Assembly: GCA_018061225.1 (NCBI GenBank)
Contig: JAGOUK010000001.1
Coordinates: 1-31,800, forward strand
Reading direction: 5' to 3'
DNA from: Candidatus Omnitrophota bacterium
Lineage (GTDB): Bacteria; Omnitrophota; Gorgyraeia; 2-02-FULL-51-18; JAGOUK01
Length of the DNA stretch: 31,800 bases
The translations under genes were made by a program, and so were the position numbers. Of the stretch, positions 3,620 to 31,800 are shown piece by piece (positions within the stretch are counted from its first letter, which is position 1; every line of letters begins with the position of its first letter). The notes under the pieces are model-generated. The model did no database searches. It saw only the letters and a list, made by a program, of their open reading frames with translations, and had not been told where the DNA came from.

Positions 3620-4786
3620 TCAGAAGGTGTACTCCTGGATTTCGGTCACCTCGACCTTGGCTTTTTCTTCCATTTCCTGCTGAATATCGGCGATGATCAG
3701 CTCCTCGTCTTCGAGACCGGCCTTGATCTCAACGGCGTCAGGCGTGGCATAGGCGACCTGGATCGGCCGGATCTCAACGGTACCGATGATGATGTCCGAT
3801 CCTTTGGGGGCCGGAGGCATGCCGTCCTTCCCGTCTTTTTCGGCGGGCGCCGTTTCGGCCGGAGCCTCTTCCGGATGGATCACATAAACAAAATACTCCT
3901 GCTCCTTCTTTCGGAATGCGGCGCTCGGGATCACGAGCGTGTGCTCTTTCTGGTAGATTTGAACCCCCACCCGTCCGAACATCCCTGCCTTGAGTTTTTC
4001 GCCCTCGTTTACAACCCGAGCTTTGACCTTGAAGGTTCGCGTTTTGCCTTCGACGATGGGCGAAATGGACTCGATCTCGCCGCTAAAGGTGTCCTGCGGG
4101 AAGGAGTCCACCGTCATGGTGACCGGAAGGCCGATCTTGATCTTGCTGATGTCCTTTTCGATCGCGCCGAATTCCGCGTATGCGTCCGTCAGGTTGACGA
4201 ATGAGCCGAACCTGTCATTCGGGGTTACAAAGTCGCCTTTTTGCTTCTCAACGCTGCCCAGGTATCCGTCAAAAGGCGCGACGAGATTGGTCTTTTCGTA
4301 TTCCAGACGGGCGGACTGATACTCCAGCTTCGTCTGCTGCAGCTTTGCGTCGGCAATCGCGCCCAGATCAAAGAGCTTCTGTGTCCGTTCCATTTCATTT
4401 TTGGCGTATTCGAGCTTCAATAACTTCTCGCGCTGATCCAGGCTGGCAATGATGTCGCCTTCGACCGCCTTTTCTCCGTCCCTGAAGTTGATGTATTCGA
4501 TATATCCGGTCTCCGCAAACTTAAGCTCCACCTCGCGGTATCCCTTGACCGTGCCAAGAGCGGGCAGCGTGTCCGAGAAGTCCACCCGAGTCACCTTGTA
4601 TCCCTTGACCGGGATCGCGATATCATCGACGGTCTTTTTTTGAACCACCGTTTTTTTCTTGAAGGTCGGAAGCCCCTTCACGAATGTGATGTGTTTGGAG
4701 AGAACCGAAAAGGCAACCAGGATCACCGCCAAGAGCAGCAGCGCCTTGAAGATGGCTGATTTATTTTTGTGCAGATTGAACTTCAT
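3620..4786 (-). CDS. RND periplasmic adaptor (membrane fusion protein)
   Basis: N-terminal TM anchor, lipoyl-like halves (GYIEYINFRDGEKAVEGDIIASLD; LVAPFDG), short helical hairpin, beta-barrel (GEIESISPIVEGKTRTFKVKA, LKAGMF); sits between TolC and RND genes. Confidence 0.92.
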   Translation of the reverse strand: MKFNLHKNKSAIFKALLLLAVILVAFSVLSKHITFVKGLPTFKKKTVVQKKTVDDIAIPVKGYKVTRVDFSDTLPALGTVKGYREVELKFAETGYIEYINFRDGEKAVEGDIIASLDQREKLLKLEYAKNEMERTQKLFDLGAIADAKLQQTKLEYQSARLEYEKTNLVAPFDGYLGSVEKQKGDFVTPNDRFGSFVNLTDAYAEFGAIEKDISKIKIGLPVTMTVDSFPQDTFSGEIESISPIVEGKTRTFKVKARVVNEGEKLKAGMFGRVGVQIYQKEHTLVIPSAAFRKKEQEYFVYVIHPEEAPAETAPAEKDGKDGMPPAPKGSDIIIGTVEIRPIQVAYATPDAVEIKAGLEDEELIIADIQQEMEEKAKVEVTEIQEYTF

Positions 4787-6842
4787 AGGAGTTGTTGATT
4801 CCTTCGGTTCCGGCCAAATAGTCCATCTTGGCCAGTGCGTTATTGGCGCTGGAGATCGCCGTGATCCTCGAGTATCGGTCTTCCGCGAGACTGACCAGCT
4901 CGTTGAGAAGCTCCGTGAGCTTCGCCTCTTCCATCATGGTCGTCTGTTCAAGAATTTTGACCTGACGCTCTTTAAATATGATCTTTGCTTCGGATGTTTC
5001 AAGCTGCAGCAAGGCGCCCTCGTAATCGTAATAGGCTTGGCGCGCGTTGATCTCCTGGTCCGTCTTTTCTTTTTGGAGCTCGGCCATGGCCTTTAGATAG
5101 TCCGCTTTGGCGATTTCCTCATCGGTCCGATGCGAGAGACGATCGAGCACTCCCAGGGTCACGGACTGCTTGTTGTCATTGGATCCGCCTTCGAAGGATG
5201 ATACGGTCGGGGCAAAGAACCTCCGCTGGTTGGTGTATCCGACGGTGTGCGGTCCGAAGGGCACCTTAACCTCGGCGATGATGGAGTATTCCTTCTCCAG
5301 GTCGGACCGCCCGTCCCTCTTCCAATTAACACTATCTCCCGAAGACAAGTCGGCTCTCGTTCCGGTGTTAAAGTCAAAATGTTCAAAGGGTTTTTCACCG
5401 GCCATGCCGACATTTCCTCTGACATCGATCCTCATCTTTCTTTGCGCGTCATACACTCTCGCCCCGTAGTAGGCGCTTTCGAGCGTCGCCTGCCTGATCC
5501 GGATATCGAAGTTACCCAACCCCACTCGGTTGATGTAGTCTTCAAAATCCACGCTGCCGAGGTCGTTAAGCTCAACCGTCATATCGATCGGAATGGTTCG
5601 GCTGGCCGGTCCGCCGATCGCCTGACACAAGGTGAGATTCGCCGATTTTTGCGCAGTGACGGCCGATTCCCTTTGGAACGAAACTTGATTAAATATGGAT
5701 GACACTTCCAGTTGGTCGATCTCGGCGATCAAACGGGATTCAAAGGCCTTGTCCTCGCGGATCTTGAACCCGTTGATCTGCTCATACAACTCACTCTGAT
5801 ACTTGATGTTGTGGGCGGCGCTCACGGCATTGCGATAAGCTTCTCCGAGTTGCAGGATAATGTCTGTTCTTTCCTTCTGATACTTGAGCTCATCCGACCG
5901 GAGACTGGCCTGCGCCTGCTTCAGCGTGAAGATCAGCTCGCCTCCGTAGTAAACCGGCTGCGAAAAGTTCGCCATGTACCTTTCTGAGCCGTATGGCTGG
6001 GAATCGTTTCCGACCGCGCCTCCCCCCAGGGAGATGTCGAGGTTCAGCGTCGGTAAGAAGGCCCGTATCGCTTCATTGACCTTGTGCCGCGCTCCCAACA
6101 AACGGTGCCGTAAAGATTCCAGCATCATGTTATTTTTGATCGCGATCTCTTCGGCCTCGCGCAGCGTCACAACGCCGTCCGACAGGGCGACGGCGAGGGC
6201 AATTTTTCCGTCCGGCGGTGAGATCGTCCGATCGATTCCGGCGATGTCCATCGGCCTCTCCCGAATATCTCGCTCGATCCTTTTTTGGACGTCCTTCGCC
6301 ACGCGATTCTTGGGGTCGATTTCGAGCGCCTGCCGCGAGAGATCAAATGCCTCTTCGTAATTTTCGCGCTGAGCGTAGGATCCGCTCGCCTTCCACGCCA
6401 AAGAATTCGCCTGCTTCCGGATCTCTGCGGTCTTAAATTTAAGATCGGGCGGGTTGTTGGTCTGAACTGCGAAGTCTTGATCCGGAGCAGCATTCTTTGA
6501 AACGTTTCCGCCCCCCATCCTCACCTGTGATGCGGTGGTGGCCGCAGATGAGCCGAAGGCCGTGTTCCCGGCGACCAAATTGGTCCGAATATCTCTCCGC
6601 ACCTCCTCCACCACGGGGTTTGCGCCAAGTTTTTTCTCAGCTTCTTCAATGGCTTTATTAATCCGATCGACGGTCTGATCGGCCGTCGGCACGGCGGCCG
6701 CCTGCTTGGGCGTTGATTTGGCAAAGGCCGCCTCATGTCCTAAAAGCAAAACGCCCGCCATAAACCAAGCGAACACAAAAATAATCTTTTGCACGCCTAT
6801 AAAGCGGCTCTTGAAGGTAGTTCTAGCCATCTTATCTTTCAT
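4761..6842 (-). CDS. TolC-family outer membrane factor with long N-terminal extension (start 6842 or 6830)
   Basis: Signal-peptide-like N-terminus; OEP-like repeats (TLREAEEIAIKNN...EAIRAFLPTLNL; VRQAYY-like NARQAYYDYEGA); operonic with MFP and RND genes. Confidence 0.8.
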   Translation of the reverse strand: MKDKMARTTFKSRFIGVQKIIFVFAWFMAGVLLLGHEAAFAKSTPKQAAAVPTADQTVDRINKAIEEAEKKLGANPVVEEVRRDIRTNLVAGNTAFGSSAATTASQVRMGGGNVSKNAAPDQDFAVQTNNPPDLKFKTAEIRKQANSLAWKASGSYAQRENYEEAFDLSRQALEIDPKNRVAKDVQKRIERDIRERPMDIAGIDRTISPPDGKIALAVALSDGVVTLREAEEIAIKNNMMLESLRHRLLGARHKVNEAIRAFLPTLNLDISLGGGAVGNDSQPYGSERYMANFSQPVYYGGELIFTLKQAQASLRSDELKYQKERTDIILQLGEAYRNAVSAAHNIKYQSELYEQINGFKIREDKAFESRLIAEIDQLEVSSIFNQVSFQRESAVTAQKSANLTLCQAIGGPASRTIPIDMTVELNDLGSVDFEDYINRVGLGNFDIRIRQATLESAYYGARVYDAQRKMRIDVRGNVGMAGEKPFEHFDFNTGTRADLSSGDSVNWKRDGRSDLEKEYSIIAEVKVPFGPHTVGYTNQRRFFAPTVSSFEGGSNDNKQSVTLGVLDRLSHRTDEEIAKADYLKAMAELQKEKTDQEINARQAYYDYEGALLQLETSEAKIIFKERQVKILEQTTMMEEAKLTELLNELVSLAEDRYSRITAISSANNALAKMDYLAGTEGINNSYEVQSAQK

Positions 6843-6854
6843 ATAATTGTTAAT

Positions 6855-6883
6855 ATTTTATGATTATGTGTAAGTATTGTCAA
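6855..6883 (-). promoter_or_regulatory. Sigma70-type promoter for the TolC-MFP-RND operon
   Basis: Minus strand TTGACA (6883-6878), 17 nt, TAAAAT (6860-6855) in an AT-rich gap. Confidence 0.8.
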
Positions 6884-6951
6884 TCAGGGTATTAAAAATA
6901 CGAACATACAGTAAAAAAACAAAGTGCTCGCGCATAATTGAATCGACGCAA

Positions 6952-6979
6952 CGGTGGTCAGCCACCTTCGGCTGAACCG
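6952..6979 (-). terminator. Hairpin downstream of dxs, possible terminator
   Basis: TCAGCC/GGCTGA stem extended by CGGT/ACCG, 12 nt after the dxs stop; no clear U-tract. Confidence 0.35.
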
Positions 6980-6991
6980 ATTTAAAGGAAT

Positions 6992-8917
6992 TTAGCGAGT
7001 TGTGGGGGACGGGAGGACGGAGGAACCGAGACCCTTGAGGGTCTCTAAGGCAGAAGAGGTGATTTTTTGGGGGGAAAGGCCGCAAAAATCAAGAAGGACA
7101 TTGCGAGGGCCGTGCTCGATGAACTGATCGGGGATACCAAGGCAACGGACGGGAGTGGTGATTTGACGCGCGCTCAAAGCTTCAAGTACGGCCGAGCCGA
7201 AGCCTCCGGCAACGCAGCCTTCCTCGATCGTTATCACCGACCGGACACGCTGAGCCCAGGAAACAATGAGCTCCTCATCCAGCGGCTTGGCAAACCGGGC
7301 ATTAATGACCCCGGCGCTCACACCCTCTTTTTCGAGCAGTACCGCAGCGTCCAGGGCCGGGCCGGTCATCGCGCCATAAGCGACCAGCATGACATCACTA
7401 CCCTCTTTGAGGAGCTCAGATTTGCCGTATTCGATCGGCGTGGCGGGGTGTTGGGACAGCAATGGATAGGCCAACTCGGTCACCGAACCCCTCGGATACC
7501 TCAGGGCGATCGGGCCCGAGGTATGATCAACCGCGAAGCGGATCATTTGAACGAATTCTTTGCCGTCTCTCGGCGCCAGGACAGTCATCCCGGGGATTTT
7601 CCGCATAAAAGAGATGTCGAGAACACCATGATGGGTCGGGCCATCCTCTCCCACCAAACCGCCGCGATCCATTGCGAAGATCACAGGGAGATTCTGAAGG
7701 GCAATGTCGTGTACGATCTGGTCAAAGGCCCTCTGCATAAAGGTGGAATAAATCGCCGCGAAGGGCCGCATTTTGCCATAGGCGAGCCCGGCGCAAAACG
7801 TGACCCCATGCTCCTCAGAGATCCCGACGTCAAACAGTCTTTCCGGAAATTTTTGGCCAAACTTCACAAGCCCCGTTCCCTCGGGCATACCCCCTGTGAG
7901 TGCCGCAATGCGGGTGTCTTTCTCGGCCAACTCGCAAAGCGTCTGGCCAAACACCTCGGTGTAGCTGAGTTCCGTGGATTTTTTCTTAAGCTCGCCCGTC
8001 TTCATGTCAAAAGGGGCTGACGCGTGCCAGCGAATCGGGTCCGCCTCGGCCATCGGCATACCTTTGCCCTTTTTGGTCAGAACATGCACCAAGACCGGGC
8101 CTTGAATGGAGAAAATTTTGGGAAAAAGATCGAGCATCGTATCAAAATTGTGTCCATCCAGCGGCCCAAAGTACCTAAAACCAAAATTTTCGAAAAGCTG
8201 ACCCGGAACCAGGAGATGCTTGACGCCCTCTTCGATGTACTTGATCTTACCAAGCACGCGGCCGCCGACTTTCGGCATACGGCCAATCAGCCCCTCAACC
8301 TCCTCGCGCAGATGGTTATAGGTTGGGTTTGTGATGACTTGGTTTAGGTAGCGGGACATGGCTCCGACCGACTTCGAGATACTCATTTCGTTGTCATTGA
8401 GAATGACGACCAAATTCTCACGAATATGCCCGGCATGATTCATTGCCTCAAGCGCCATGCCGTTTGCAATTGACGTATCCCCAATAACTGCAACGACTTT
8501 GGTGTTATGACCCATGCGTCGTCTAGCAGCCGCGACTCCGAGAGCAGCCGAAATAGACGGCCCGCCATGACCCGTCGTGAAGACATCGTAAGGGCTTTCG
8601 CCGGCATTGACGAGACCCGAAACACCTTTGTGCTGGCGGAATGACTGGCGGAAGGCATCTCGTCGGCCGGTTAAAATTTTGTGAGCCTGGACCTGATGCC
8701 CAACATCCCATACCAAGAAGTCATTAGGAGTATCTAAAAGGTAGTGGAGCGCAACAGTTAGATCAGTAACACCGAGACCCGCCCCAAGATGACCGCCTTT
8801 TTCGGAGACAGTCTCGATGATGCAGTCACGCACCTCACGAGCCACTCGCGGGAGCTCCTCTTTGGGGAGCTTACGAAGGTCGATGGGCGAATTGATATGT
8901 GGGAGAAGCGGTTCCAT
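6992..8917 (-). CDS. dxs: 1-deoxy-D-xylulose-5-phosphate synthase
   Basis: GGHLGAGLG, WDVGHQ, HKILTGR, NDNEMSIS, DVGISEEH, YSTFMQRAFDQ, GEDGPTHHG motifs; start moved to ATG 8917 (MEPLL). Confidence 0.97.
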   Translation of the reverse strand: MEPLLPHINSPIDLRKLPKEELPRVAREVRDCIIETVSEKGGHLGAGLGVTDLTVALHYLLDTPNDFLVWDVGHQVQAHKILTGRRDAFRQSFRQHKGVSGLVNAGESPYDVFTTGHGGPSISAALGVAAARRRMGHNTKVVAVIGDTSIANGMALEAMNHAGHIRENLVVILNDNEMSISKSVGAMSRYLNQVITNPTYNHLREEVEGLIGRMPKVGGRVLGKIKYIEEGVKHLLVPGQLFENFGFRYFGPLDGHNFDTMLDLFPKIFSIQGPVLVHVLTKKGKGMPMAEADPIRWHASAPFDMKTGELKKKSTELSYTEVFGQTLCELAEKDTRIAALTGGMPEGTGLVKFGQKFPERLFDVGISEEHGVTFCAGLAYGKMRPFAAIYSTFMQRAFDQIVHDIALQNLPVIFAMDRGGLVGEDGPTHHGVLDISFMRKIPGMTVLAPRDGKEFVQMIRFAVDHTSGPIALRYPRGSVTELAYPLLSQHPATPIEYGKSELLKEGSDVMLVAYGAMTGPALDAAVLLEKEGVSAGVINARFAKPLDEELIVSWAQRVRSVITIEEGCVAGGFGSAVLEALSARQITTPVRCLGIPDQFIEHGPRNVLLDFCGLSPQKITSSALETLKGLGSSVLPSPTTR

Positions 8918-13641: not shown

Positions 13642-14106
13642 TTAAATATTAAAGTGAATGGGCAGCGATCCGGCGGCGGCTGGCTCGGCGCGGGCAGCCA
13701 GAATGATTTCTTCGAGCGACACGCGGTCCAGCGCCGCCTCAAAAGCATCTGATAATTTTCGCCAAAATAACTCGGCCGCGGCCTGCGGAACCAACCGCGA
13801 CCGCTTGAGCGCGGCCGCCTTAGTCTCGGGCGCCTGCCGGATCAACGTATCCTCGCCCAGGGCTTTGAGCAGCGACCCGACCTTGATTTCGGAGGGCTTT
13901 GACGTGAGCACATACCCTCCGCGCGGGCCTCGGACACTTTTGACCCAACCTTCGCGTTTGATCCGAGAGAGGATCTGCTCAAGATACGCGGCGGATATTT
14001 TTTCTTCGCTGGAGATCTGCGAGACGGACACGGCGCCTTCACCGTAGCGTTCGGCCAGATACAGCATGGCTTTAAGCCCGTAAGTCGCGCGCGTGCTAAA
14101 TTTCAT
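13642..14106 (-). CDS. Rrf2-family transcriptional regulator, cysteine-free (CymR-like)
   Basis: MKFSTRATYGLKAMLYLA, YLEQILSRIKREGWVKSVRGPRGGY; no Cys in the protein; C-terminus HFNI. Confidence 0.92.
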   Translation of the reverse strand: MKFSTRATYGLKAMLYLAERYGEGAVSVSQISSEEKISAAYLEQILSRIKREGWVKSVRGPRGGYVLTSKPSEIKVGSLLKALGEDTLIRQAPETKAAALKRSRLVPQAAAELFWRKLSDAFEAALDRVSLEEIILAARAEPAAAGSLPIHFNI

Positions 14107-14567: not shown

Positions 14568-14771
14568 CTACCGGCTGGAGCGGATTTTAATGATGTAGAG
14601 CTCATCTTTAATGCTCTTAAGCTCCGCGAGAATGGTCTGCTGACCCTGGATAAGTTTTGCGATTTCTTTTTTAAGCGATGAGAGGTCCGTTTCTTGGGAG
14701 AAGGCGTTGGTCGTCAGGCCCGCAGCCGCAATGAACAGACCCGCGAGCAAAACCCATGCCGCGCGCTTCAA
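14568..14771 (-). CDS. Small secreted coiled-coil protein, unknown function
   Basis: Signal peptide MKRAAWVLLAGLFIAAAGLTTNAFS, then a heptad-like helix; TTG start overlaps the upstream stop by 4 nt. Confidence 0.7.
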   Translation of the reverse strand: MKRAAWVLLAGLFIAAAGLTTNAFSQETDLSSLKKEIAKLIQGQQTILAELKSIKDELYIIKIRSSR

Positions 14772-15001
14772 GCGATCCCCCCGGATCCCGGAGTCTGTTT
14801 AGAAACGGAAAGATTCCGGATCAGTCCGCGGACCAGCAGCAAAAGGGTCTTCACGAAAAAAAATGTAAAAAGCGCCAGCGCGATGCCGTACGGCCAGGAG
14901 GGCAGCGGGATCAGGTTGGCCGCGAAATACCGCTCCACCGCTCCCGGAATCCATATCGCCGAGGCAGCCGCGGCCGCCGCTTCGAATGCCGCCGCTCTCA
15001 T
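14768..15001 (-). CDS. Small membrane protein, unknown function
   Basis: Fills the gap exactly: ATG abuts the NIL stop and the stop overlaps the next start; hydrophobic segment WPYGIALALFTFFFVKTLLLLV. Confidence 0.5.
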   Translation of the reverse strand: MRAAAFEAAAAAASAIWIPGAVERYFAANLIPLPSWPYGIALALFTFFFVKTLLLLVRGLIRNLSVSKQTPGSGGIA

Positions 15002-15241
15002 TTAGATCACCGTCCGCCCGTCAGCGGGTTCCACCTTCACGCCGCGGGATTCCAAAAATTTAATCCCCGCGGCAAGGTCGGCTTGAGCGCCCTCGAGCTC
15101 GAGCGTCATTTCGCCGACGGTCTCAGTGACACGTGCGCGTCGGATATTGGGCATGATATTAAACTGCTTGGCCATCGTAAATACGACCGGCTCTTGCACT
15201 TTGTCGGAAGGAAACGTCAGTGTCACACGTTGCGTTGCCAT
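15002..15241 (-). CDS. Stand-alone NIL-domain protein
   Basis: VTLTFPSDKVQEPVVFTMAKQFNIMPNIRRARV...GEMTLELEG...GVKVE fits the NIL (MetN C-terminal, ACT-like) pattern; GGAGG 7 nt before ATG 15241. Confidence 0.85.
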   Translation of the reverse strand: MATQRVTLTFPSDKVQEPVVFTMAKQFNIMPNIRRARVTETVGEMTLELEGAQADLAAGIKFLESRGVKVEPADGRTVI

Positions 15242-15260
15242 GTTCATTCCTCCGTTAAAG

Positions 15261-15542
15261 TTACCGGGCTCCGCCCGCGATTGCGGGAATAATAGACACT
15301 TCGTCGCCGTCCTTGAGCGCCGTCTCGGCGCCGCTCAGGAAGCGGATATCTTCTTCATTCACATAAACGTTCACAAAGCGCCGCAGCTTGCCGTCCGCGT
15401 CGCAAAGTCTGTCCTTGATCCCCGGAAACTTCGATTCCAGGTCCTTCAAGATGTCGTTGACGTTCGCGCCGTCGGCGGCGACCTCCGCCTGATTGGCGGT
15501 TAATTTTTGAAGCGGGGTCGGGATACGGACTTTGACTGCCAT
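15261..15542 (-). CDS. MoaD/ThiS/CysO-family ubiquitin-like sulfur carrier with masked C-terminus (GG-AR)
   Basis: [13 protein letters not shown]...[16 protein letters not shown]...[14 protein letters not shown], followed by AR and stop. Confidence 0.93.
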
Positions 15543-15544
15543 GA

Positions 15545-16798
15545 TTACCTCTGAGCGTTTGCTTTGGGTTGATGTTTTTCGTAAGCTTCGACGAACGAAT
15601 CAAAATTAGGTTTCACCAGCCAGGGCTTTTCGAGATGGTCCGTGATCGCTTCCTGGGTCTTGAGCCCGTTTCCGGTGATACAGATCACGATCGGTTCATT
15701 TTTCGGGATCACGCCGTTTTCGATCAGCTTCTTGGCGCAGGCCAGCGTAACGCCGCCCGCCGTCTCGGTGAAGATACCTTCCGTGCTGGCAAGCAGCTTG
15801 ATCGCGTCGACGATCTCCTGATCCGTCGCGTGCTCAGCCGCGCCGCCCGAGGACTTCACCGCGTCAAAGGCGTACACACCGTCGGCGGGATTGCCGATCG
15901 CAAGCGACTTGGCGATGGTGTTGGGCTTCACGGGCTTGATGATATCAACATTGCTCTTGATCGCCGTCGCGATCGGACCGCAGCCTTCGGCTTGCGCGCA
16001 ATAGATCCTGGAATCCACCTTGTCGATAATGCCGAGCTTGGCCAATTCGTGGAAAGCCTTCCAAATCTTCGTGAGCAGCGAGCCTGACGCGGCCGGGACG
16101 ACAACATGCTTCGGCGTCTTCCACCCGAGCTGCTCGACGATCTCATAGCCCATGGTCTTCGAACCTTCGGCATAGTAAGGCCGGATGTTGATATTCACGA
16201 AGGCCCACTTGTATTTGTTGGCCACTTCGGAGCAAAGGCGGTTCACTTCGTCGTAATTGCCCTCGACGGCGACAAGATTAGGGTTGAACGCGAGCGCGCC
16301 AACCACTTTGCCGATCTCGAGATTTGAGGGAATAAAAATATAGCGCTTAAGACCCGCGAACGCCGCGTTGGCCGCGACCGATCCGGCGAGATTGCCGGTG
16401 GACGCGCAGGCCACGGTGTCAAAGCCCAGTTCTTTGGCGCGCGTGAGAGCTACTGAAACGACACGGTCCTTAAAGGAGAGGGTTGGATGACAAACGGAGT
16501 CGTCCTTGATGTACAACTCGCTGACGCCCAGCGCCTTGGCCAGGTTCGAGCAGCGAAACAGCGGTGTGAAGCCCGCATGAAAACCCACGGTCGGCTCGCC
16601 GTCGATGGGCAGCAGCTCCCGATACCGCCACAGCGATTCGGGGCGGCTTTGGATTTTTTCGCGCGAAATATCCTTCTTGATGCGGTCGTAGTCGTAATCG
16701 ACTTCGAGCGATCCAAAGCAATATTCGCAGACATAAATCGCCTCAGCCGGATACAGCCGATGACACTCGCGACACTTAAGACCTTTGATATAACTCAT
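15545..16798 (-). CDS. Threonine-synthase-like fold-type-II PLP enzyme (sulfur-carrier-associated; true activity uncertain)
   Basis: N-terminal CxxC...Cxx[12 protein letters not shown] lysine, CASTGN, ITGNGLK; start at ATG 16798. Confidence 0.88.
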
Positions 16799-16809
16799 GA
16801 TTTGCCCCA

Positions 16810-16838
16810 ACTATAACAGACGTGTAAAAGGGTGTCAG
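16810..16838 (-). promoter_or_regulatory. Internal sigma70-type promoter upstream of the ThrC-like gene
   Basis: CTGACA (16838-16833, overlapping the cysK stop), 17 nt, TATAGT (16815-16810) with a TG extension. Confidence 0.55.
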
Positions 16839-17761
16839 CCCTCAAAGTATTGAACCATGCTCAAATAACGCTCCCCCGAATCCGGGAACAGGACGGCGAC
16901 CGTTTTGCCGGGCCCCAGGATTTGCGCGACTTTGAGCGCGCCCCAGCAGGCCGCTCCGCAGGAGATCCCCGCGAAGATACCTTCCTGCTTGCACAGCTGT
17001 GACGCTGTCTGATAAGCGTCCTCATCGCTGCACCTAAAAATTTCATCCACCACCGACTGATTGAGCGTTTGCGGCACAAAGCCCGCGCCGATGCCCTGTA
17101 TCATATGAGCTCCCGGCTTGCCGCCGGACAAAACCGCAGATGTCGCGGGCTCGACGCCATAGACCTTCACCGCCGGATTGTGCTTCTTCAGCACTTCTCC
17201 GATGCCGCTGATGGTCCCGCCGGTACCGATGCCGGCCACGAACGCGTCGATGCGGCCGTCCAGGTCAGCCAAAATTTCTTTGCCGGTCGTCTTCCGATGC
17301 GCGGCCGGGTTATCCGGATTGGTGAATTGGCTCGGCATGAAGGCGCCTTTCCCTTCCCGCACCAGCTGTCTGGCTTTTTCCACCGCGCCGGCCATGCCGG
17401 CATCCACGGGGGTGAGCACCACTTCCGCGCCAAAAGACTTAAGGATCTGCAAACGTTCGAAGCTCATGTTATCCGGCATCACCAACGTCACGTGATACCC
17501 GCGCGCCGCGCCGACCATCGCCAACCCGATCCCGGTGTTGCCGCTCGTGGCTTCCACGATGCGCGACCCCGCCTGCACCAGCCCGTTCTTCTCCGCCTGA
17601 TCGATCATGTTGAGCGCGATGCGGTCCTTGACGCTGCCGCCGGGGTTGAAGACTTCCAACTTCGCAAAAATATCCGCCGACCCCTTTTGCACAATTCGGT
17701 TCAGCTTCACCATCGGCGTGTTGCCGATAAGCTCGGTGATGGACTGCGCGGGCCGCGTCAT
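16835..17761 (-). CDS. cysK: Cysteine synthase A (O-acetylserine sulfhydrylase)
   Basis: IGNTPMV, NPGGSVKDR, EATSGNTGIGLA, GIGTGGTISG, HMIQGIGAGFVP, DSGERYLS. Confidence 0.96.
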   Translation of the reverse strand: MTRPAQSITELIGNTPMVKLNRIVQKGSADIFAKLEVFNPGGSVKDRIALNMIDQAEKNGLVQAGSRIVEATSGNTGIGLAMVGAARGYHVTLVMPDNMSFERLQILKSFGAEVVLTPVDAGMAGAVEKARQLVREGKGAFMPSQFTNPDNPAAHRKTTGKEILADLDGRIDAFVAGIGTGGTISGIGEVLKKHNPAVKVYGVEPATSAVLSGGKPGAHMIQGIGAGFVPQTLNQSVVDEIFRCSDEDAYQTASQLCKQEGIFAGISCGAACWGALKVAQILGPGKTVAVLFPDSGERYLSMVQYFEG

Positions 17762-18156
17762 AGGATCACGATCTCTTCCGCGGTCACGGCATCCCCTTGA
17801 ATCCTAAAGGACTTGAGGTCCGGATGATTCATATCGGCCAGCGACACGATGAGATAACTCACGTCCGGATAAAACGCCATCTGCCGGTCCGTCTGCGATG
17901 GCTCGGCCGCCGAAGCAACATGCGAGTGAAAAATTCCCAACAACTCCAATCCGTCACCCGAGATCCGCTTAAAGGCCTTAAGCTGCTGTTTAGGATCCAT
18001 GGTGTAGGTCACCGTGGAATGGTCCATGTTCTCGATCGGCAGATAATATTTGGCTTCGCCGTCCTTGCCGGCCAAAAAACCGCAGGCCTCCTGCGGATAC
18101 ACGCCCTTGGCATGATCCACCATCTCGGCATGAATGGCCTTGGCGATCTTCAGCAC
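17758..18156 (-). CDS. JAB/Mov34 (M67) metallopeptidase, Mec+/HcyD-like
   Basis: EACG plus JAMM motif HSH-x7-S-xx-D (IFHSHVASAAEPSQTD). Confidence 0.92.
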   Translation of the reverse strand: MLKIAKAIHAEMVDHAKGVYPQEACGFLAGKDGEAKYYLPIENMDHSTVTYTMDPKQQLKAFKRISGDGLELLGIFHSHVASAAEPSQTDRQMAFYPDVSYLIVSLADMNHPDLKSFRIQGDAVTAEEIVIL

Positions 18157-18162
18157 GACGGC

Positions 18163-18888
18163 CTACCTCGCCCCCGGGCGGTTGTGCAGGCCGCATTCTT
18201 TGTGCTCGGGATTCTCCCACCACCAGCGGCCGGCGCGCTCATCCTCGCCTTCCTTAACCGCGCGCGTGCAGGGATCACAGCCAACGGAACGGTAGCCTTG
18301 ATCAAAAAGAACGCTATACGGCACCTTGTTCTTGCGGATGTAGTCCCAGACCCTGGCTTCGTCCCAGTCGGCGAGCGGATTCACCTTGAGGATATTCCCG
18401 TGGGCCTCATCAATCTCAATTTTCTTGATCTCCGCCCGCGTCACTGACTGCGCGCGGCGCTGTCCCGTGATCCAGGCGTCGAGTCCGCCCAGCGCGCGCT
18501 TGAGCGGCTCCACTTTGCGGATGCGGCAGCATTCTTGCCGGTTCTCGACCGATTCTTTGAATGAAAAAAATCCTTTGGCCCGCGTCAGCTTCTCAACGGC
18601 GACAGGGTCCGGAAAAAATACTTCGATCACGCAGTTGTACTTAAACTTCACCGCGTCCATGACCGCGTAAGTTGCCTCCGGCAGCCGTCCCGTATCCAGC
18701 GTGACGATCCTCGCCTTGGGGTCAAATTTGAGCGCCATGTCGATCAACACCATGTCCTCCGGGCCAAACGAGGAGGAGATGGCGATTCGGCTTCCGTATT
18801 TTTCGAGCATCCAGGCGATGACCGACTCCGGGCCGTGCAATTCAAACTCAGAGTTCAGTTTTTCCGCTTCCGCTTTGGCTCTAAGCAT
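18163..18888 (-). CDS. cysH: Thioredoxin-dependent APS reductase (CysH family, Fe-S type)
   Basis: SSSFGPED, LDTG, ECCRIRKVEPL, WITGQRR, SVGCDPCT, C-terminal ECGLH; start moved to ATG 18888. Confidence 0.94.
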   Translation of the reverse strand: MLRAKAEAEKLNSEFELHGPESVIAWMLEKYGSRIAISSSFGPEDMVLIDMALKFDPKARIVTLDTGRLPEATYAVMDAVKFKYNCVIEVFFPDPVAVEKLTRAKGFFSFKESVENRQECCRIRKVEPLKRALGGLDAWITGQRRAQSVTRAEIKKIEIDEAHGNILKVNPLADWDEARVWDYIRKNKVPYSVLFDQGYRSVGCDPCTRAVKEGEDERAGRWWWENPEHKECGLHNRPGAR

Positions 18889-20149
18889 GGAGGATGATCC
18901 CCCCGCCCGAAACAAGATTCCGGTCCACCAGCACGAAGCGGCCGGTTTCCTGAATCTCGTGGAACGGATCATAAACAATGTCTTTTTTGAACTCGAGCTC
19001 AAGTTCGGCGACCTCGTTCTTGGCAACTTCATGATGGTCTTTGGAGACTTCATCCAGCGTCGAAGAATTGATCACGCGGACAACGTTCTTCACCTTGCAC
19101 TCCAATTCCTGAGTCGTGAGTTTGATGACGTAGGACTTGCCCTTGGCCAAATGCTCTTCACCCATCCAAAAGATATTGGCGCGGAAGTGTTTGCCGACCA
19201 GCGGCTTGGCCGACGCGTGCACGGCGATCTCGCCGCGCTCGACAAAGAGCTGATCTTCAACGGTGATTCCGATGGATTCGCCCGCTTCGGCTTCCGGCGG
19301 TTCCGGCGCGTTCCAGCGCTCGATCGCGCTGACCACCGCCGTTTTCTTCGACGGCAAAAAGAGGATCTCATCACCCTTCTTCAGTCGGCCGGACTCGATG
19401 CGACCGGAGAAGTAGCGTTTTTCGGAATCAAACCGATACACGTCCTGCAGCGGGAATCTCAGCGCGCGCGTCGAGGCCGTGCGGTGCGAATCCACCGAAT
19501 CCAGGATCTCGACGAGCGTCGACCCTTTGTACCAGGGCATCTGCGACGTGCGCATCACGACATTGTCGCCCACGTACGCGGACACCGGGATGAAGGCCTT
19601 CGGCGTGACCTTGAGCGTCTTCAGATAATTCGTGTAGTCCGTGACGAGTTTGTTGAACGTCTCTTCACTGTAGCCCACGAGGTCCATCTTATTCACGATC
19701 ACAATGATGTTCTTGATTCCGAGAAGTGACAAGATCGTCGCGTGACGCTTGGACTGTTCGCGCAGCCCCTCTTTGGCGTCGATGAGCAGGAGCGCCGCGT
19801 CGGCGCTGGACGCGCCCGAAATCATGTTCTTGAGGAATTCTTTGTGGCCTGGCGCGTCGATGACGCGGTAGGTGCGCTTCTTTGTTTTAAAAAGCACCTG
19901 AGACACGTCGATCGTGATGCCCTGATCCTGCTCTTCCTCGAGCGCGTCGAGTAAGAAGGCATATTCAAACTTCACGCCCTTATCGACGCAGATCTGCTTC
20001 ACGTATTCCAGTTTTTGCGGCAGGATGGAGTCGGTCTCGTGCAGCAGGCGGCCCACGAGCGTGGACTTGCCGTGATCGACATGTCCGACAAAAACGATGC
20101 GCAGTTCGCCGGATTGATTGTTTTGTGGGTTGCCGTTCACGTCAGACAT
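18881..20149 (-). CDS. cysN: Sulfate adenylyltransferase subunit 1 (GTPase), no APS-kinase domain
   Basis: GHVDHGKSTL, EQDQGITID, DAPGHKEFLKNM, VNKMD, TGRFVLVD; ends at 422 aa. Confidence 0.94.
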   Translation of the reverse strand: MSDVNGNPQNNQSGELRIVFVGHVDHGKSTLVGRLLHETDSILPQKLEYVKQICVDKGVKFEYAFLLDALEEEQDQGITIDVSQVLFKTKKRTYRVIDAPGHKEFLKNMISGASSADAALLLIDAKEGLREQSKRHATILSLLGIKNIIVIVNKMDLVGYSEETFNKLVTDYTNYLKTLKVTPKAFIPVSAYVGDNVVMRTSQMPWYKGSTLVEILDSVDSHRTASTRALRFPLQDVYRFDSEKRYFSGRIESGRLKKGDEILFLPSKKTAVVSAIERWNAPEPPEAEAGESIGITVEDQLFVERGEIAVHASAKPLVGKHFRANIFWMGEEHLAKGKSYVIKLTTQELECKVKNVVRVINSSTLDEVSKDHHEVAKNEVAELELEFKKDIVYDPFHEIQETGRFVLVDRNLVSGGGIILHA

Positions 20150-20952
20150 TACATGTATCCTTTCGCGCGAAGCTTCTGCATCGCGTATCGCTGAGAGTGG
20201 TCCTGATCGCGGCCGACGCGCTCAGATATTTTGGTGTTCTTCAATTCTTCAATGACTTTGTCCACGGTGTCAGCGTCCGAATCCACGGGCTTCGTGATCG
20301 GCCGGCACCCGAGCGTGCGGTAGCGCTTGCCGTTCTTGGCAAAGTAGAGATCGACGAGCGGAATGTTCTCGCGTTTCACGTAATTCCACACGTCCACCTC
20401 GGTCCACTCGAGCAGCGGATGAATGCGCACATGCGTGCCGGGATCGTAGTCCGACTGAAACTGATTCCACAGCTCCGGCGGCTGGTCCTTGTAATTCCAC
20501 TCAAAGTCGATGTTGCGCGGAGAAAAATATTTTTCCTTCGCGCGCGTGCCGTCTTCGTCGCGGCGGATGCCGACGAACAGGCCGTCCCATTTTTCTTTTT
20601 CGATCATCTGCTGAAGAGCGACGGTTTTCATCTCATGGCAGACGGTGACCGGGTCATTGTTGTCATAGTTGACCCCGCGCGCCTTGGCGGCTTCATTGAC
20701 GCCGACGATGAGCTTCAGGCCCCATTCTTTGGCGTAGTGCTCACGGTAAGCGTACATTTCCGGAAACTTAAAGGTCGTGTCGATGTGAACAACCGGAAAA
20801 GGCACGCGGCCGAAGAAAGCCTTGCGCGCCAGCCAGACGTTGACGCAGGAGTCCTTGCCCATGGACCACAGCATGGCCGGCTTCTTGAACTTTTTATAGG
20901 CCTCACGGATGATAAAAATGGATTGATTTTCGAGCGCGCTCAGGTGGTCCAC
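20149..20952 (-). CDS. cysD: Sulfate adenylyltransferase subunit 2
   Basis: LENQSIFIIREA, WSMGKDS, HIDT, RRDEDGTRAKE, RIHPLLEWTE, YRTLGC; GTG start with AAGGAG SD. Confidence 0.96.
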   Translation of the reverse strand: MDHLSALENQSIFIIREAYKKFKKPAMLWSMGKDSCVNVWLARKAFFGRVPFPVVHIDTTFKFPEMYAYREHYAKEWGLKLIVGVNEAAKARGVNYDNNDPVTVCHEMKTVALQQMIEKEKWDGLFVGIRRDEDGTRAKEKYFSPRNIDFEWNYKDQPPELWNQFQSDYDPGTHVRIHPLLEWTEVDVWNYVKRENIPLVDLYFAKNGKRYRTLGCRPITKPVDSDADTVDKVIEELKNTKISERVGRDQDHSQRYAMQKLRAKGYM

Positions 20953-21002: not shown

Positions 21003-21031
21003 ATTTTATTGAATCCAAGTTAAAATGTCAA
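21003..21031 (-). promoter_or_regulatory. Sigma70-type promoter of the sulfur operon
   Basis: TTGACA (21031-21026), 17 nt, TAAAAT (21008-21003). Confidence 0.82.
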
Positions 21032-22807: not shown

Positions 22808-22995
22808 ATTGGTCCCACAGCGCCGTGTGTCGTGTCCTGGCTGAATCCCTGTTTTTACAGGGCGGGTGCCTACTACCGACATTTCTTATCCGACAGATCG
22901 CCGGATCTATCCACGCCGGGGTTCGACACCCACATGAGTTATATCGGATTCGCGCGTATGGACACAACGAAGCTCGAACGCCGCAGGAAACTCTT
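22808..22995 (-). ncRNA. ssrS: 6S RNA
   Basis: ~185-nt rod: closing stem UCCUGCGGCG/CGCUGUGGGA, GUUGUGUCC/GGACACGAC, GAAUCC/GGAUUC, central bubble with 3' hairpin CCCUG-UAAAAA-CAGGG, GUGGGUGUC/GGCACCCGC, apical GAUAGAUC/GAUCUGUC. A TATAAT lies ~7 nt upstream. The ends are approximate. Confidence 0.82.
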
Positions 22996-29535: not shown

Positions 29536-29612
29536 TGGTGGGCAATACAGGATTCGAACCTGTGACCTTTTCCATGTCAAGGAAACGCTCTAACCAACTG
29601 AGCTAATTGCCC
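29536..29612 (-). tRNA. tRNA-Val(GAC)
   Basis: GGGCAAT/ATTGCCC acceptor stem, anticodon arm TTTCC-TTGACAT-GGAAA, TTCGAAT T-loop, encoded CCA. Confidence 0.97.
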
Positions 29613-29642
29613 AAAAAAAAGAATCCGAACTCAACGAATACA

Positions 29643-29726
29643 TGCCGAGAGCCGGACTTGAACCGGCATGGACCGAAGCCCGACAGATTTTAAGTCTGTT
29701 GTGTCTGCCAATTCCACCATCCCGGC
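29643..29726 (-). tRNA. tRNA-Leu(TAA)
   Basis: GCCGGGA acceptor stem, TGGCAGAC D-loop, ACAGA-CTTAAAA-TCTGT, long variable arm with TTCG loop; CCA not encoded. Confidence 0.96.
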
Positions 29727-29730
29727 AATC

Positions 29731-29804
29731 TGGAGGCGACGGCCGGAATTGAACCGGCGTAAACGGTTTTGCAGACCGCTGCCTAACCACTTGGCTACGT
29801 CGCC
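29731..29804 (-). tRNA. tRNA-Cys(GCA)
   Basis: GGCGACG/CGTCGCC acceptor stem, anticodon loop CTGCAAA, discriminator T, encoded CCA. Confidence 0.97.
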
Positions 29805-29931: not shown

Positions 29932-31800
29932 ATGGTCAAACCCAACGAACATCCTATTTATTCGCTTCTCGCCAAACGCGTTGTTTTCCTCGATGGCGCC
30001 ATGGGCACGATGATACAGCGTCATAAGCTGACCGAAGCCGACTATCGGGGCGAACGGTTCAAAGACTACGCGCAGGACCTTAAAGGCAATAACGACCTCC
30101 TATCCCTCACCCGACCGGATGTGATCCGTCTCATCCACCGCCAATATCTCGAAGCCGGCAGCGACATCATCGAGACCAACACCTTCAGCGCCAACGCCAT
30201 CAGCATGGCTGACTATAAGATGGAAGGGCTGGTCTATGAGCTCAACGTCGCCTCGGCCAAACTGGCGCGCGAAGCCATAGATGAGGTCCGCAAGCAAGAT
30301 CCGTCCCGCGTCTGCTTCGTGGCTGGCGCCATCGGGCCCACCAACCGCACCGCGTCCATGTCCCAGAACGTCAATGACCCCGGCAACCGTGCCGTGACCT
30401 TCACGCAGCTAGTCGAGATTTACACCGAACAGATTCGCGGCCTCGTTGACGGCGGGGCCGACCTTCTGATGGTCGAAACAATCTTCGACACCCTGAATGC
30501 CAAGGCCGCGCTTTATGCGATTGATCTTTATGCCGAGCAAACCGGCAAGAAACTGCCCATCATTATTTCGGGCACCATCACCGACGCGTCGGGGCGTACG
30601 CTCTCAGGTCAAACGGTCGAGGCCTTCTGGACTTCGCTCAAGCACGCCAAGCCTCTCGCGATCGGGCTCAATTGCGCGCTCGGAGCGGCCGAGATGCGTC
30701 CTTACATCGCGGAACTCTCGCGGCTGGCCGATTGCTACATCAGCTGTTATCCCAACGCGGGTCTTCCCAACGAATTTGCCGAATACGACCAGGCGCCTGA
30801 TCAGATGGCGCCTTTGGTGAAGGACTTTGTTCAAAGCGGTTACATCAATATTCTCGGCGGCTGCTGCGGCACAACCCCCGACCACATCGCGGCAATGGTG
30901 AAAGCCGCGCGCGACATGGCGCCGCGTAAAGTCCCGGTGATCGCGCCGCGCTCGTCTTACAGCGGACTCGAAGTGCTCAATCTTGATCCGGGCGCCCGCT
31001 TCCTCAATGTCGGCGAACGCACCAACGTCACCGGCTCGCCCAAATTTGCCAAGCTCATCAAAGAAGAAAAATACGACGAGGCGCTCACCGTCGCGCGCCA
31101 GCAGGTCGAAGCCGGCGCCCAGATGATCGACATCAACATGGACGAAGCGATGCTCGATTCCAAAGCCGCGATGGTGAAATTCCTGAACCTTATCGCGTCC
31201 GAGCCCGACATCGCGCGCGTGCCCGTCATGATCGACTCCTCCAAGTGGGATGTCATCGAAGCGGGTCTCCAGTGCTGCCAAGGCAAATGCGTCGTGAACT
31301 CTATCAGTCTCAAGGAGGGTGAAGCGCCGTTCAAGGAACAAGCGCGCAAGCTCAAGCGCTACGGCGCGGCCGCGGTCGTGATGGCATTCGATGAGCAGGG
31401 CCAGGCCGATACGCTCGAGCGCCGCAAGACCATTTGCCAACGCGCGTACAAAATCCTCACCGAAGAGATTGGTCTGCCTGGCGAGGACATCATCTTCGAT
31501 CCCAATATTTTCGCGATCGCGACCGGTATCGAGGAGCACAGCAATTACGCGGTCGACTTCATCGAAGCCTGCAAATACATCAAGGCCGAACTCCCACACG
31601 CCAAGATCTCCGGCGGTGTGAGCAATGTTTCGTTTTCATTCCGTGGTAATAATCCCGTGCGCGAGGCGATGCACTCGGTTTTTCTCTACTACGCGGTGAA
31701 GGCGGGGCTGGACATGGGCAACGTCAACGCGGGCATGATCGAAGTCTATGACGAGATCCCCAAGGACTTGCTCGCCAAAGTCGAGGACGTCGTGCTCAAC
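29932..31800 (+). CDS. metH: Cobalamin-dependent methionine synthase, N-terminal part; runs off the window end
   Basis: Not in the ORF track (no stop in window). Hand translation: [45 protein letters not shown] (Zn site), [28 protein letters not shown]. Confidence 0.97.

Follow-up and report, generated by a model that had tools for sequence, protein, structure and literature searches.

A sulfate-assimilation operon of an Omnitrophota bacterium probably encodes a MetM/MetO-type route to homocysteine

A probable homocysteine operon among sulfate assimilation genes

We analysed a window of 31,800 nucleotides (positions 1-31,800 of contig JAGOUK010000001.1, assembly GCA_018061225.1) from a Candidatus Omnitrophota bacterium, in which genes were called from an open reading frame (ORF) listing together with Pfam and NCBIfam profile scans. 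On its minus strand eight genes run from 20952 down to 15002 in the order cysD-cysN-cysH-JAB-cysK-ThrC-like-ThiS/MoaD carrier-NIL, with intergenic distances of -8 to +25 nt. We propose, with a probability of roughly 0.8, that this operon encodes a homocysteine pathway of the MetM/MetO type, in which an enzyme resembling threonine synthase (ThrC) takes sulfur from a small carrier protein. The observations behind this proposal are the gene content and order, the family placement of the products, the conserved linkage of the genes, the control of orthologues by S-adenosylmethionine (SAM) riboswitches and the failure of the searches to turn up the conventional enzymes. A first-pass annotation of the same DNA had described the eight-gene order, the tight junctions and a metH gene about 9 kb away, and the ORF and profile scans bear this out, the start of metH lying 8980 nt away from that of cysD.

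A pathway that converts O-phosphohomoserine to homocysteine via a carrier thiocarboxylate is described for Streptomyces albulus (Hasebe et al. 2024, as listed in GapMind 2026, PMC13759103). In that entry the components are MetM, a ThrC homologue, MetO, the sulfur carrier, and MoeZ, the carrier-sulfur ligase, together with the JAB hydrolase Mec, on which MetO maturation depends (PMC13759103). A second source places a SAM riboswitch in front of S. albulus metM (PMC12172450). The mechanism that the first-pass annotation had inferred for the window is this published MetM/MetO/Mec/MoeZ pathway, so the mechanism itself is not new.

The first three genes belong to sulfate assimilation. The sulfate adenylyltransferase small subunit, CysD (20149-20952), has a PAPS_reduct domain and scores 363 bits against PRK05253, above the cut-off; the GTPase subunit, CysN (18881-20149; 422 aa, without an APS-kinase domain), scores 384 bits against TIGR02034, also above the cut-off; and CysH (18163-18888) is of the thioredoxin-dependent adenosine 5'-phosphosulfate (APS) reductase type (TIGR02055, 261 bits, cut-off 235). 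We place the cysH start at the ATG at 18888, within the last cysN codons and overlapping the cysN stop by 8 nt; the longest ORF, with its start at 19053, overlaps cysN by 173 nt and was not adopted. A Mec/HcyD-like JAB/JAMM metallopeptidase gene follows (17758-18156; Prok-JAB, E 2.5e-23), which overlaps by 4 nt with cysK (16835-17761), encoding an O-acetylserine sulfhydrylase, that is, a cysteine synthase of the free-sulfide kind. The ThrC-like pyridoxal phosphate (PLP) enzyme of the MetM clade (PALP, 227 bits) occupies 15545-16810, its start probably being the ATG at 16798 because the alignments of relatives begin at ORF residue 5. Only 2 nt downstream lies the gene for a ThiS/MoaD-fold sulfur carrier of the CysO/MetO type (15261-15542), whose C-terminus reads ...AIAGG-AR, and the cluster ends with a stand-alone NIL domain protein of 81 aa (15002-15247), matched by PF09383 at E 7e-18 over profile positions 1-72 of 73. 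All eight lie on the minus strand.

From these parts we infer the chemical steps, the sulfur donor, the release of the product by JAB and the role of NIL. CysDN would activate sulfate and CysH would reduce APS, with a sulfite reductase encoded elsewhere yielding sulfide, from which CysK would convert O-acetylserine to cysteine. The JAB peptidase would trim the carrier to a C-terminal Gly-Gly (GG), which the genome's ThiF-rhodanese E1 would then adenylate and thiocarboxylate. The ThrC-like enzyme would eliminate phosphate from O-phosphohomoserine, itself made by Hom and a HomK-like phosphotransferase, and would add the carrier thiocarboxylate at C-gamma. The resulting carrier-homocysteine adduct would be hydrolysed, probably by the same JAB, and MetH would methylate the homocysteine.

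Partner genes in the genome and its order

The assembly (1.33 Mb in 201 contigs, 81% complete, 1.25% contamination) was inventoried together with 30 relatives from its order, giving 31 genomes, of which 19 have a completeness of 90% or more. A search of these 31 genomes found no MetA, MetX or DUF39 enzymes, nor any member of the Cys_Met_Meta_PP family (PF01053; MetY/B/C/Z), for which the best hit was a partial match of 39 bits, as is usual for other aminotransferases. With none of these enzymes found, no candidate other than the ThrC-like enzyme is left, in the genomes searched, to provide MetH with homocysteine. The first-pass annotation had suggested a homocysteine route without MetA/MetX/MetY, and this is supported in that metA, metX, metY, metB and metC were found neither here nor in the 30 relatives.

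The ThrC-like gene is present in 27 of the 31 genomes (74-100% identical), and 30 of the 31 carry a second gene that is 34-39% identical. Our genome also has this second, canonical thrC, 36% identical to the window enzyme, in a hom-thrC-HomK operon; hom and thrC occupy C173:3-2461, where the contig end cuts them, and the 3' end of thrC and a HomK-like gene are on C139:4211-5586, so that contigs C173 and C139 are probably adjacent. In the closest relatives (e.g. genomes G003, G006, G007 and G016) the second thrC copy adjoins a homologue of TIGR02535 (HomK). GHMP-type ThrB gave only weak matches in the genomes searched, and the GHMP match in our own genome, on contig C68, is presumably IspE-like rather than ThrB. 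On this sequence evidence the HomK-like gene probably supplies O-phosphohomoserine.

An E1 is likewise present. The only ThiF-family E1 found in the genome, on contig C126, is MoeZ-like, combining a ThiF domain (290 bits) with a C-terminal Rhodanese domain (75 bits), and its CHHGGRS motif we take to be the rhodanese catalytic-cysteine loop. Within C126:778-4028 (-) a class-V aminotransferase gene, the ThiF-rhodanese E1 gene and a DUF2203 gene follow one another in one direction. The aminotransferase is likely to be a cysteine desulfurase, and the position of the E1 gene just downstream of it suggests cysteine, by way of a persulfide relay, as the source of the carrier sulfur. A sulfite reductase of 594 aa is encoded on contig C136.

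The first-pass view that the cysteine synthase of the operon is a CysK using free sulfide also holds. It passes the CysK equivalog (TIGR01139, 433 bits, cut-off 351) and fails the CysM equivalog (312 vs 394 bits), and among solved structures it matches CysK enzymes best (2egu, 373 bits), with no CysM-labelled chain among the top 60. The cysE gene is present in all 19 high-quality relatives; it was not found in this 81%-complete metagenome-assembled genome.

The ThrC-like enzyme belongs to a distinct clade

The window enzyme aligns with solved ThrC structures at its PLP lysine motif, SFKDR, the alignment beginning at residue 57 (about 200 bits) after an additional N-terminal zinc ribbon (CxxC...CxxC). 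Compared with solved ThrC enzymes it departs from the canonical threonine synthase motif set: STGNT is replaced by STGNL, NS-x-NP-x-R-x-EGQKT by a motif that is one residue longer with the Arg shifted, the GNAGN loop by ASGSL, and IGNPAS by IGNPADG. These replacements are near-invariant across 78 relatives and mark one subfamily among the representatives recovered from a search of 1.84 billion proteins. Where near relatives are named in public records, the name is 'threonine synthase'.

In a maximum likelihood tree of 47 sequences, a 100/99 split separates 32 ThrC-like sequences, including the window enzyme, from canonical ThrC, the latter side also holding an STGNA group and the copy from C173. 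The window enzyme lies in a 100/99 clade with sequences from Omnitrophota, Margulisbacteria/Saganbacteria and Nitrospirota, and the same large ThrC-like clade takes in Gemmatimonadota, Actinomycetota and one cyanobacterium. We place the window enzyme in the MetM clade by sequence, through actinomycete genes that match the published metM/metO description and are considered below.

An identity as cysteate synthase was rejected (TIGR03844, 71 bits vs a cut-off of 325). A protein-atlas search returned only generic clusters, and the high-GC representatives P0191 and P0226 were on short contigs without informative context. The ThrC-like representative P0130 came from Gemmatimonadota, and a search with P0187 led to a single Acidimicrobiia locus.

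Linkage and SAM riboswitches in related loci

Gene neighbourhoods were counted at the 80 nearest homologous loci, using only those with enough flank. Of 72 loci, 69 have the carrier after the ThrC-like gene, and of 56, 50 have NIL after the carrier; because of these two counts, the arrangement is not due to chance. JAB was upstream in 26 of 48 and cysK in 37 of 48. More widely, genes of the ThrC-like clade have a carrier gene as neighbour in five phyla. The carrier comes after the ThrC-like gene in nearly every Actinomycetota and Gemmatimonadota locus, without cysK and often with ThiF and thrB; one locus reads ThrC-like-ThiS-hom-thrB, and many Gemmatimonadota loci read ThrC-like-thrB-carrier-ThiF. 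Other Omnitrophota loci have a short ThiF gene without rhodanese between carrier and NIL, together with genes for a small sulfite reductase and for siroheme. Thi4 and ThiI-like genes are found near some related loci.

Control regions of the orthologues point to methionine. We fetched ten Streptomyces-like actinomycete genomes (7-10 Mb, 68-71% GC), and in all ten a SAM-I riboswitch lies about 90 nt upstream of a gene whose product is 49-52% identical to the window enzyme; in nine of them an adjacent carrier is 55-60% identical to the window carrier. With riboswitch, enzyme and carrier together, these loci match the published description of metM/metO. SAM-I riboswitches were also found at 17 of 20 other Actinomycetota-type loci, including that of the isolate Conexibacter sp. 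CPCC 206217 (the alignment scan for Actinomycetota gave, among the matches listed, mostly Solirubrobacterales), and directly upstream of two high-GC metagenomic ThrC-like genes. At 12 of 16 Gemmatimonadota loci a SAM-II riboswitch lies on the same strand 0.1-2.5 kb upstream, within 500 nt in seven cases. Among 301 sampled Actinomycetota genomes, a ThrC-like homologue at E<=1e-70 was found in 131; these include three unpublished genomes (G033, G152 and G080), none of which underlies other claims made here.

The first-pass annotation had proposed that the ThrC-like enzyme transfers carrier-bound sulfur to O-phosphohomoserine or, alternatively, to O-phosphoserine. The first substrate is favoured over the second by the SAM riboswitches and by the linkage to hom and thrB in orthologous operons.

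As side observations, the SAM-II matches at the Gemmatimonadota loci (L108-L169) are to RF00521, described as an alpha-proteobacterial SAM aptamer, with 36-54 bits. In locus L001, whose enzyme is 96% identical to that of the window, an ORF of 1216 aa without a Pfam match (4217-7867, +) lies between cysK and the ThrC-like gene, where the window has only 25 nt. Many close relatives have ATP-binding cassette (ABC) transporter genes interleaved (ATPase, permease and NMT1-type binding protein; e.g. L003:3752-4591 and 6149-7929), which are not in the window and which we take to be of the sulfonate/nitrate/taurine transporter kind.

A masked carrier, its JAB peptidase and the NIL protein

The best solved match of the window carrier is Mycobacterium tuberculosis CysO (3dwg_C, E 4e-24). 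Its GG is masked by two further residues, and its counterparts at about 18 of the closest loci have a frame that runs past GG through a Lys/Ser/Ala-rich linker into NIL. In three others (L063, L071 and L075) a full ThiF E1 continues the carrier frame beyond GG, so that carrier and E1 make up one polyprotein, and the remaining near-locus carriers end in GG, GGR, GGS or GGAR. In contrast to these window-type loci, GG is the very C-terminus in 138 of 150 carriers from Actinomycetota and Gemmatimonadota, and neither JAB nor NIL was found within 3-4 kb of the carrier loci of those two phyla. Since carriers of the window-type clade often continue past GG, processing at GG must there precede adenylation, making JAB cleavage obligatory in the loci with fusions. 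The carrier-NIL and carrier-ThiF fusions after GG back the earlier suggestion that JAB is needed to unmask GG. The JAMM motif of the window JAB is intact (E...HSH-x7-S-xx-D), and the in-operon JAB would be the obvious enzyme for this step; it is predicted that the carrier-homocysteine adduct is probably hydrolysed by JAB as well. Cleavage of the carrier polyproteins at GG may be likened to the processing of ubiquitin precursors.

The NIL protein has no cysteines, and its only solved relatives are MetN C2 domains (E 9e-4). Judged from sequence, NIL is a candidate third partner specific to this clade and additional to the published system. A tentative suggestion, which we hold to be possible rather than probable, is that in Omnitrophota, Margulisbacteria/Saganbacteria and Nitrospirota it constitutes a third dedicated component that binds methionine, homocysteine or a related ligand and gates carrier maturation or the synthase, thereby replacing the SAM riboswitch of other phyla; GG cleavage, obligatory where the carrier is part of a polyprotein, could in that case be a regulated step. 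Methionine feedback through NIL and product release by JAB, both put forward in the first-pass annotation, are likewise putative.

A link between NIL domains and homocysteine exists in another system. PMC5764234 describes homocysteine synthesis from aspartate semialdehyde by DUF39 (MA1821) with a NIL-ferredoxin (MA1822) in methanogens and Desulfovibrio, the NIL-ferredoxin being required for this route. The window operon resembles that system in the genetic association of a NIL domain with homocysteine synthesis. It differs in that the window NIL has neither cysteines nor a ferredoxin and is tied to a ubiquitin-like carrier, and in that DUF39 was not found in the 31 genomes.

Predicted enzyme-carrier complex

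We modelled the ThrC-like enzyme with carrier residues 1-91, alongside three controls. The pair scored 0.54, and the best of the three controls 0.00. In calibration 55 of 80 solved complexes attained the mark, as did 3 of 110 mismatched pairs; those attaining it with a score of 0.60 or under were just 7 of the 80 solved complexes and all 5 mismatches that passed. In the model, carrier residues 85-91 would reach active-site residues 136, 206-210, 242 and 305-312, and the carrier body would rest on the zinc ribbon (residues 26-34). The prediction lends weak support to an enzyme-carrier complex.

Weighing the proposed pathway against alternatives

Several points weigh against assigning the operon to a MetM/MetO-type pathway. 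A riboswitch search of the window gave none at the gathering threshold, the only matches at E<=1 being sub-threshold ones to Leu leaders. The enzyme passes the thrC hidden Markov model TIGR00260 (284 bits, above the cut-off) and may have some threonine synthase activity. A Microcystis 'ThrC' that adjoins a MetO-like gene and is 51.6% identical to MetM is reported to yield threonine in vitro (PMC12172450). Orthology of the window enzyme to the characterised S. albulus MetM (UniProt A0A059WBP2) is indirect, being drawn through the large actinomycete genomes that fit the published description. The HomK-like gene scores 207 bits against TIGR02535 vs a cut-off of 446, the assembly is incomplete, and the complex prediction is a weak pass that may partly echo the solved CysM-CysO complex.

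One could suppose instead that the ThrC-like enzyme uses free sulfide on O-phosphohomoserine, with carrier, JAB and E1 serving some other end, for instance molybdopterin, thiamin or tRNA thiolation, or the tagging of proteins. The same operon yields sulfide, the sole E1 found lies outside it, Thi4 and ThiI-like genes occur near some related loci, and the modelled complex is a weak pass, all of which would suit such an arrangement. However, enzyme and carrier are adjacent in 69 of 72 near loci and across five phyla, the carrier is of the CysO/MetO rather than the MoaD/ThiS type, and published MetM is described as taking the MetO thiocarboxylate (PMC13759103). We consider this explanation unlikely.

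Cysteine synthesis provides a second possible destination for the carrier sulfur. In M. tuberculosis, the O-phosphoserine-specific CysM accepts sulfur from the carrier CysO to make cysteine, Mec is the partner hydrolase and the E1 is of the MoeZ type. If carrier, JAB and E1 fed CysK in the manner of CysO/CysM/Mec, the ThrC-like enzyme would be a second threonine synthase, as its score above the thrC cut-off would allow; the 4-nt overlap of JAB with cysK and the match of the carrier to CysO fit this as well. We nevertheless regard it as quite improbable. The cysteine synthase is an equivalog-level CysK whose nearest relatives are O-acetylserine sulfhydrylases, and relatives have cysE. In Actinomycetota and Gemmatimonadota the carrier is beside the ThrC-like gene in loci without cysK, and orthologues are under SAM riboswitches rather than Thr or Cys signals. 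Moreover, a canonical thrC is already present in the hom-thrC-HomK operon, and the canonical ThrC motifs are replaced in the ThrC-like enzyme.

That the ThrC-like enzyme is instead a CysM analogue, making cysteine from O-phosphoserine and the carrier thiocarboxylate, was left open by the first-pass annotation and would agree with a CysO-like carrier in an operon otherwise devoted to cysteine, but it is highly improbable given hom and thrB in orthologous operons, SAM riboswitches that point to methionine, and a lineage with CysE and CysK for cysteine and no other homocysteine route found.

Relation to known systems and implications

The proposed MetM/MetO-type pathway of the window shares with that of S. 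albulus a ThrC-homologous PLP enzyme beside a CysO/MetO-type carrier, a JAB hydrolase and a ThiF-rhodanese E1, with O-phosphohomoserine as the implied substrate. Unlike in S. albulus, the window has no SAM riboswitch, its genes lie inside a cysDNH-cysK sulfate operon with JAB in cis, and the carrier GG is masked (GG-AR in the window, polyprotein fusions in relatives). The NIL protein is an extra conserved partner in window-type loci, and O-phosphohomoserine would probably come from a HomK-like enzyme rather than from ThrB. As for M. tuberculosis, CysO is the closest solved relative of the window carrier, the cluster encodes a JAB hydrolase and the E1 is MoeZ-type, whereas the window cysteine synthase is of the CysK type and the conserved neighbour of the carrier is the ThrC-like enzyme.

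In Wolinella succinogenes, the HcyS/HcyD/HcyF/MetY system (Krishnamoorthy and Begley 2011, cited in PMC5764234) reportedly uses a JAB protease to trim an extra C-terminal residue from the carrier, whose thiocarboxylate then leads to homocysteine. Its genes are said to cluster with those of sulfate assimilation, and its sulfhydrylase is reportedly MetY (Cys_Met_Meta_PP), with O-acetylhomoserine as substrate. The window operon would share the masked carrier, the JAB, the making of homocysteine from a thiocarboxylate and the clustering with sulfate assimilation. Neither a PF01053 enzyme nor a homoserine acyltransferase, however, was found in the 31 genomes of the window's order.

The features that are new here, in uncultured phyla, are the integration into a cysDNH-JAB-cysK operon, the masked or polyprotein carrier, the conserved NIL partner, the probable Rrf2 control and the probable supply of substrate by a HomK-type enzyme. 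Public records label the genes of this clade 'threonine synthase', so that automated tools would take the lineages that carry them for methionine auxotrophs; assigning the MetM/MetO route to them would fill this methionine gap in Omnitrophota and in several further uncultured phyla. The occurrence of two unrelated SAM riboswitch classes on orthologous operons in two phyla supports the 2024 discovery independently. A lead on NIL function in homocysteine synthesis comes from the NIL partner together with the carrier polyproteins, and the polyproteins may represent ubiquitin-style precursor processing in bacterial primary metabolism.

Transcription signals and neighbouring genes

Upstream of cysD a candidate sigma-70-like promoter (21003-21031, -; TTGACA-17-TAAAAT) agrees with the consensus at 11 of 12 positions and is proposed from this consensus match alone. 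A second promoter-like site (16810-16838, -; CTGACA-17-TATAGT with an upstream TG) lies in the 3' end of cysK, immediately ahead of the ThrC-like gene, and could act as an internal promoter of the enzyme-carrier-NIL unit.

Fur and Rrf2 genes come after the cluster. The Rrf2-family regulator (13642-14106, -; Rrf2, E 3.5e-31) is a candidate repressor of the cluster, and most of the closest loci (L001-L019) have an Rrf2 gene after NIL; regulation by Rrf2 in place of a SAM riboswitch is probable. Between NIL and these genes, an ORF of 77 aa (14768-15001, -) starts on the NIL stop codon (TAAATG), is hydrophobic in appearance and has no Pfam match; a 67-aa ORF and then Fur follow downstream.

On the plus strand, metH (29932-31800; S-methyl_trans 332 bits, Pterin_bind 207 bits) is present as its N-terminal part and extends past the end of the window. 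Three tRNA genes cluster at 29539-29804 (-), between thrS and metH. A 6S RNA (RF00013 in Rfam, 53.1 bits, above gathering) lies at 22808-22992 (-), between a rarA-like (MgsA) gene and pheT.

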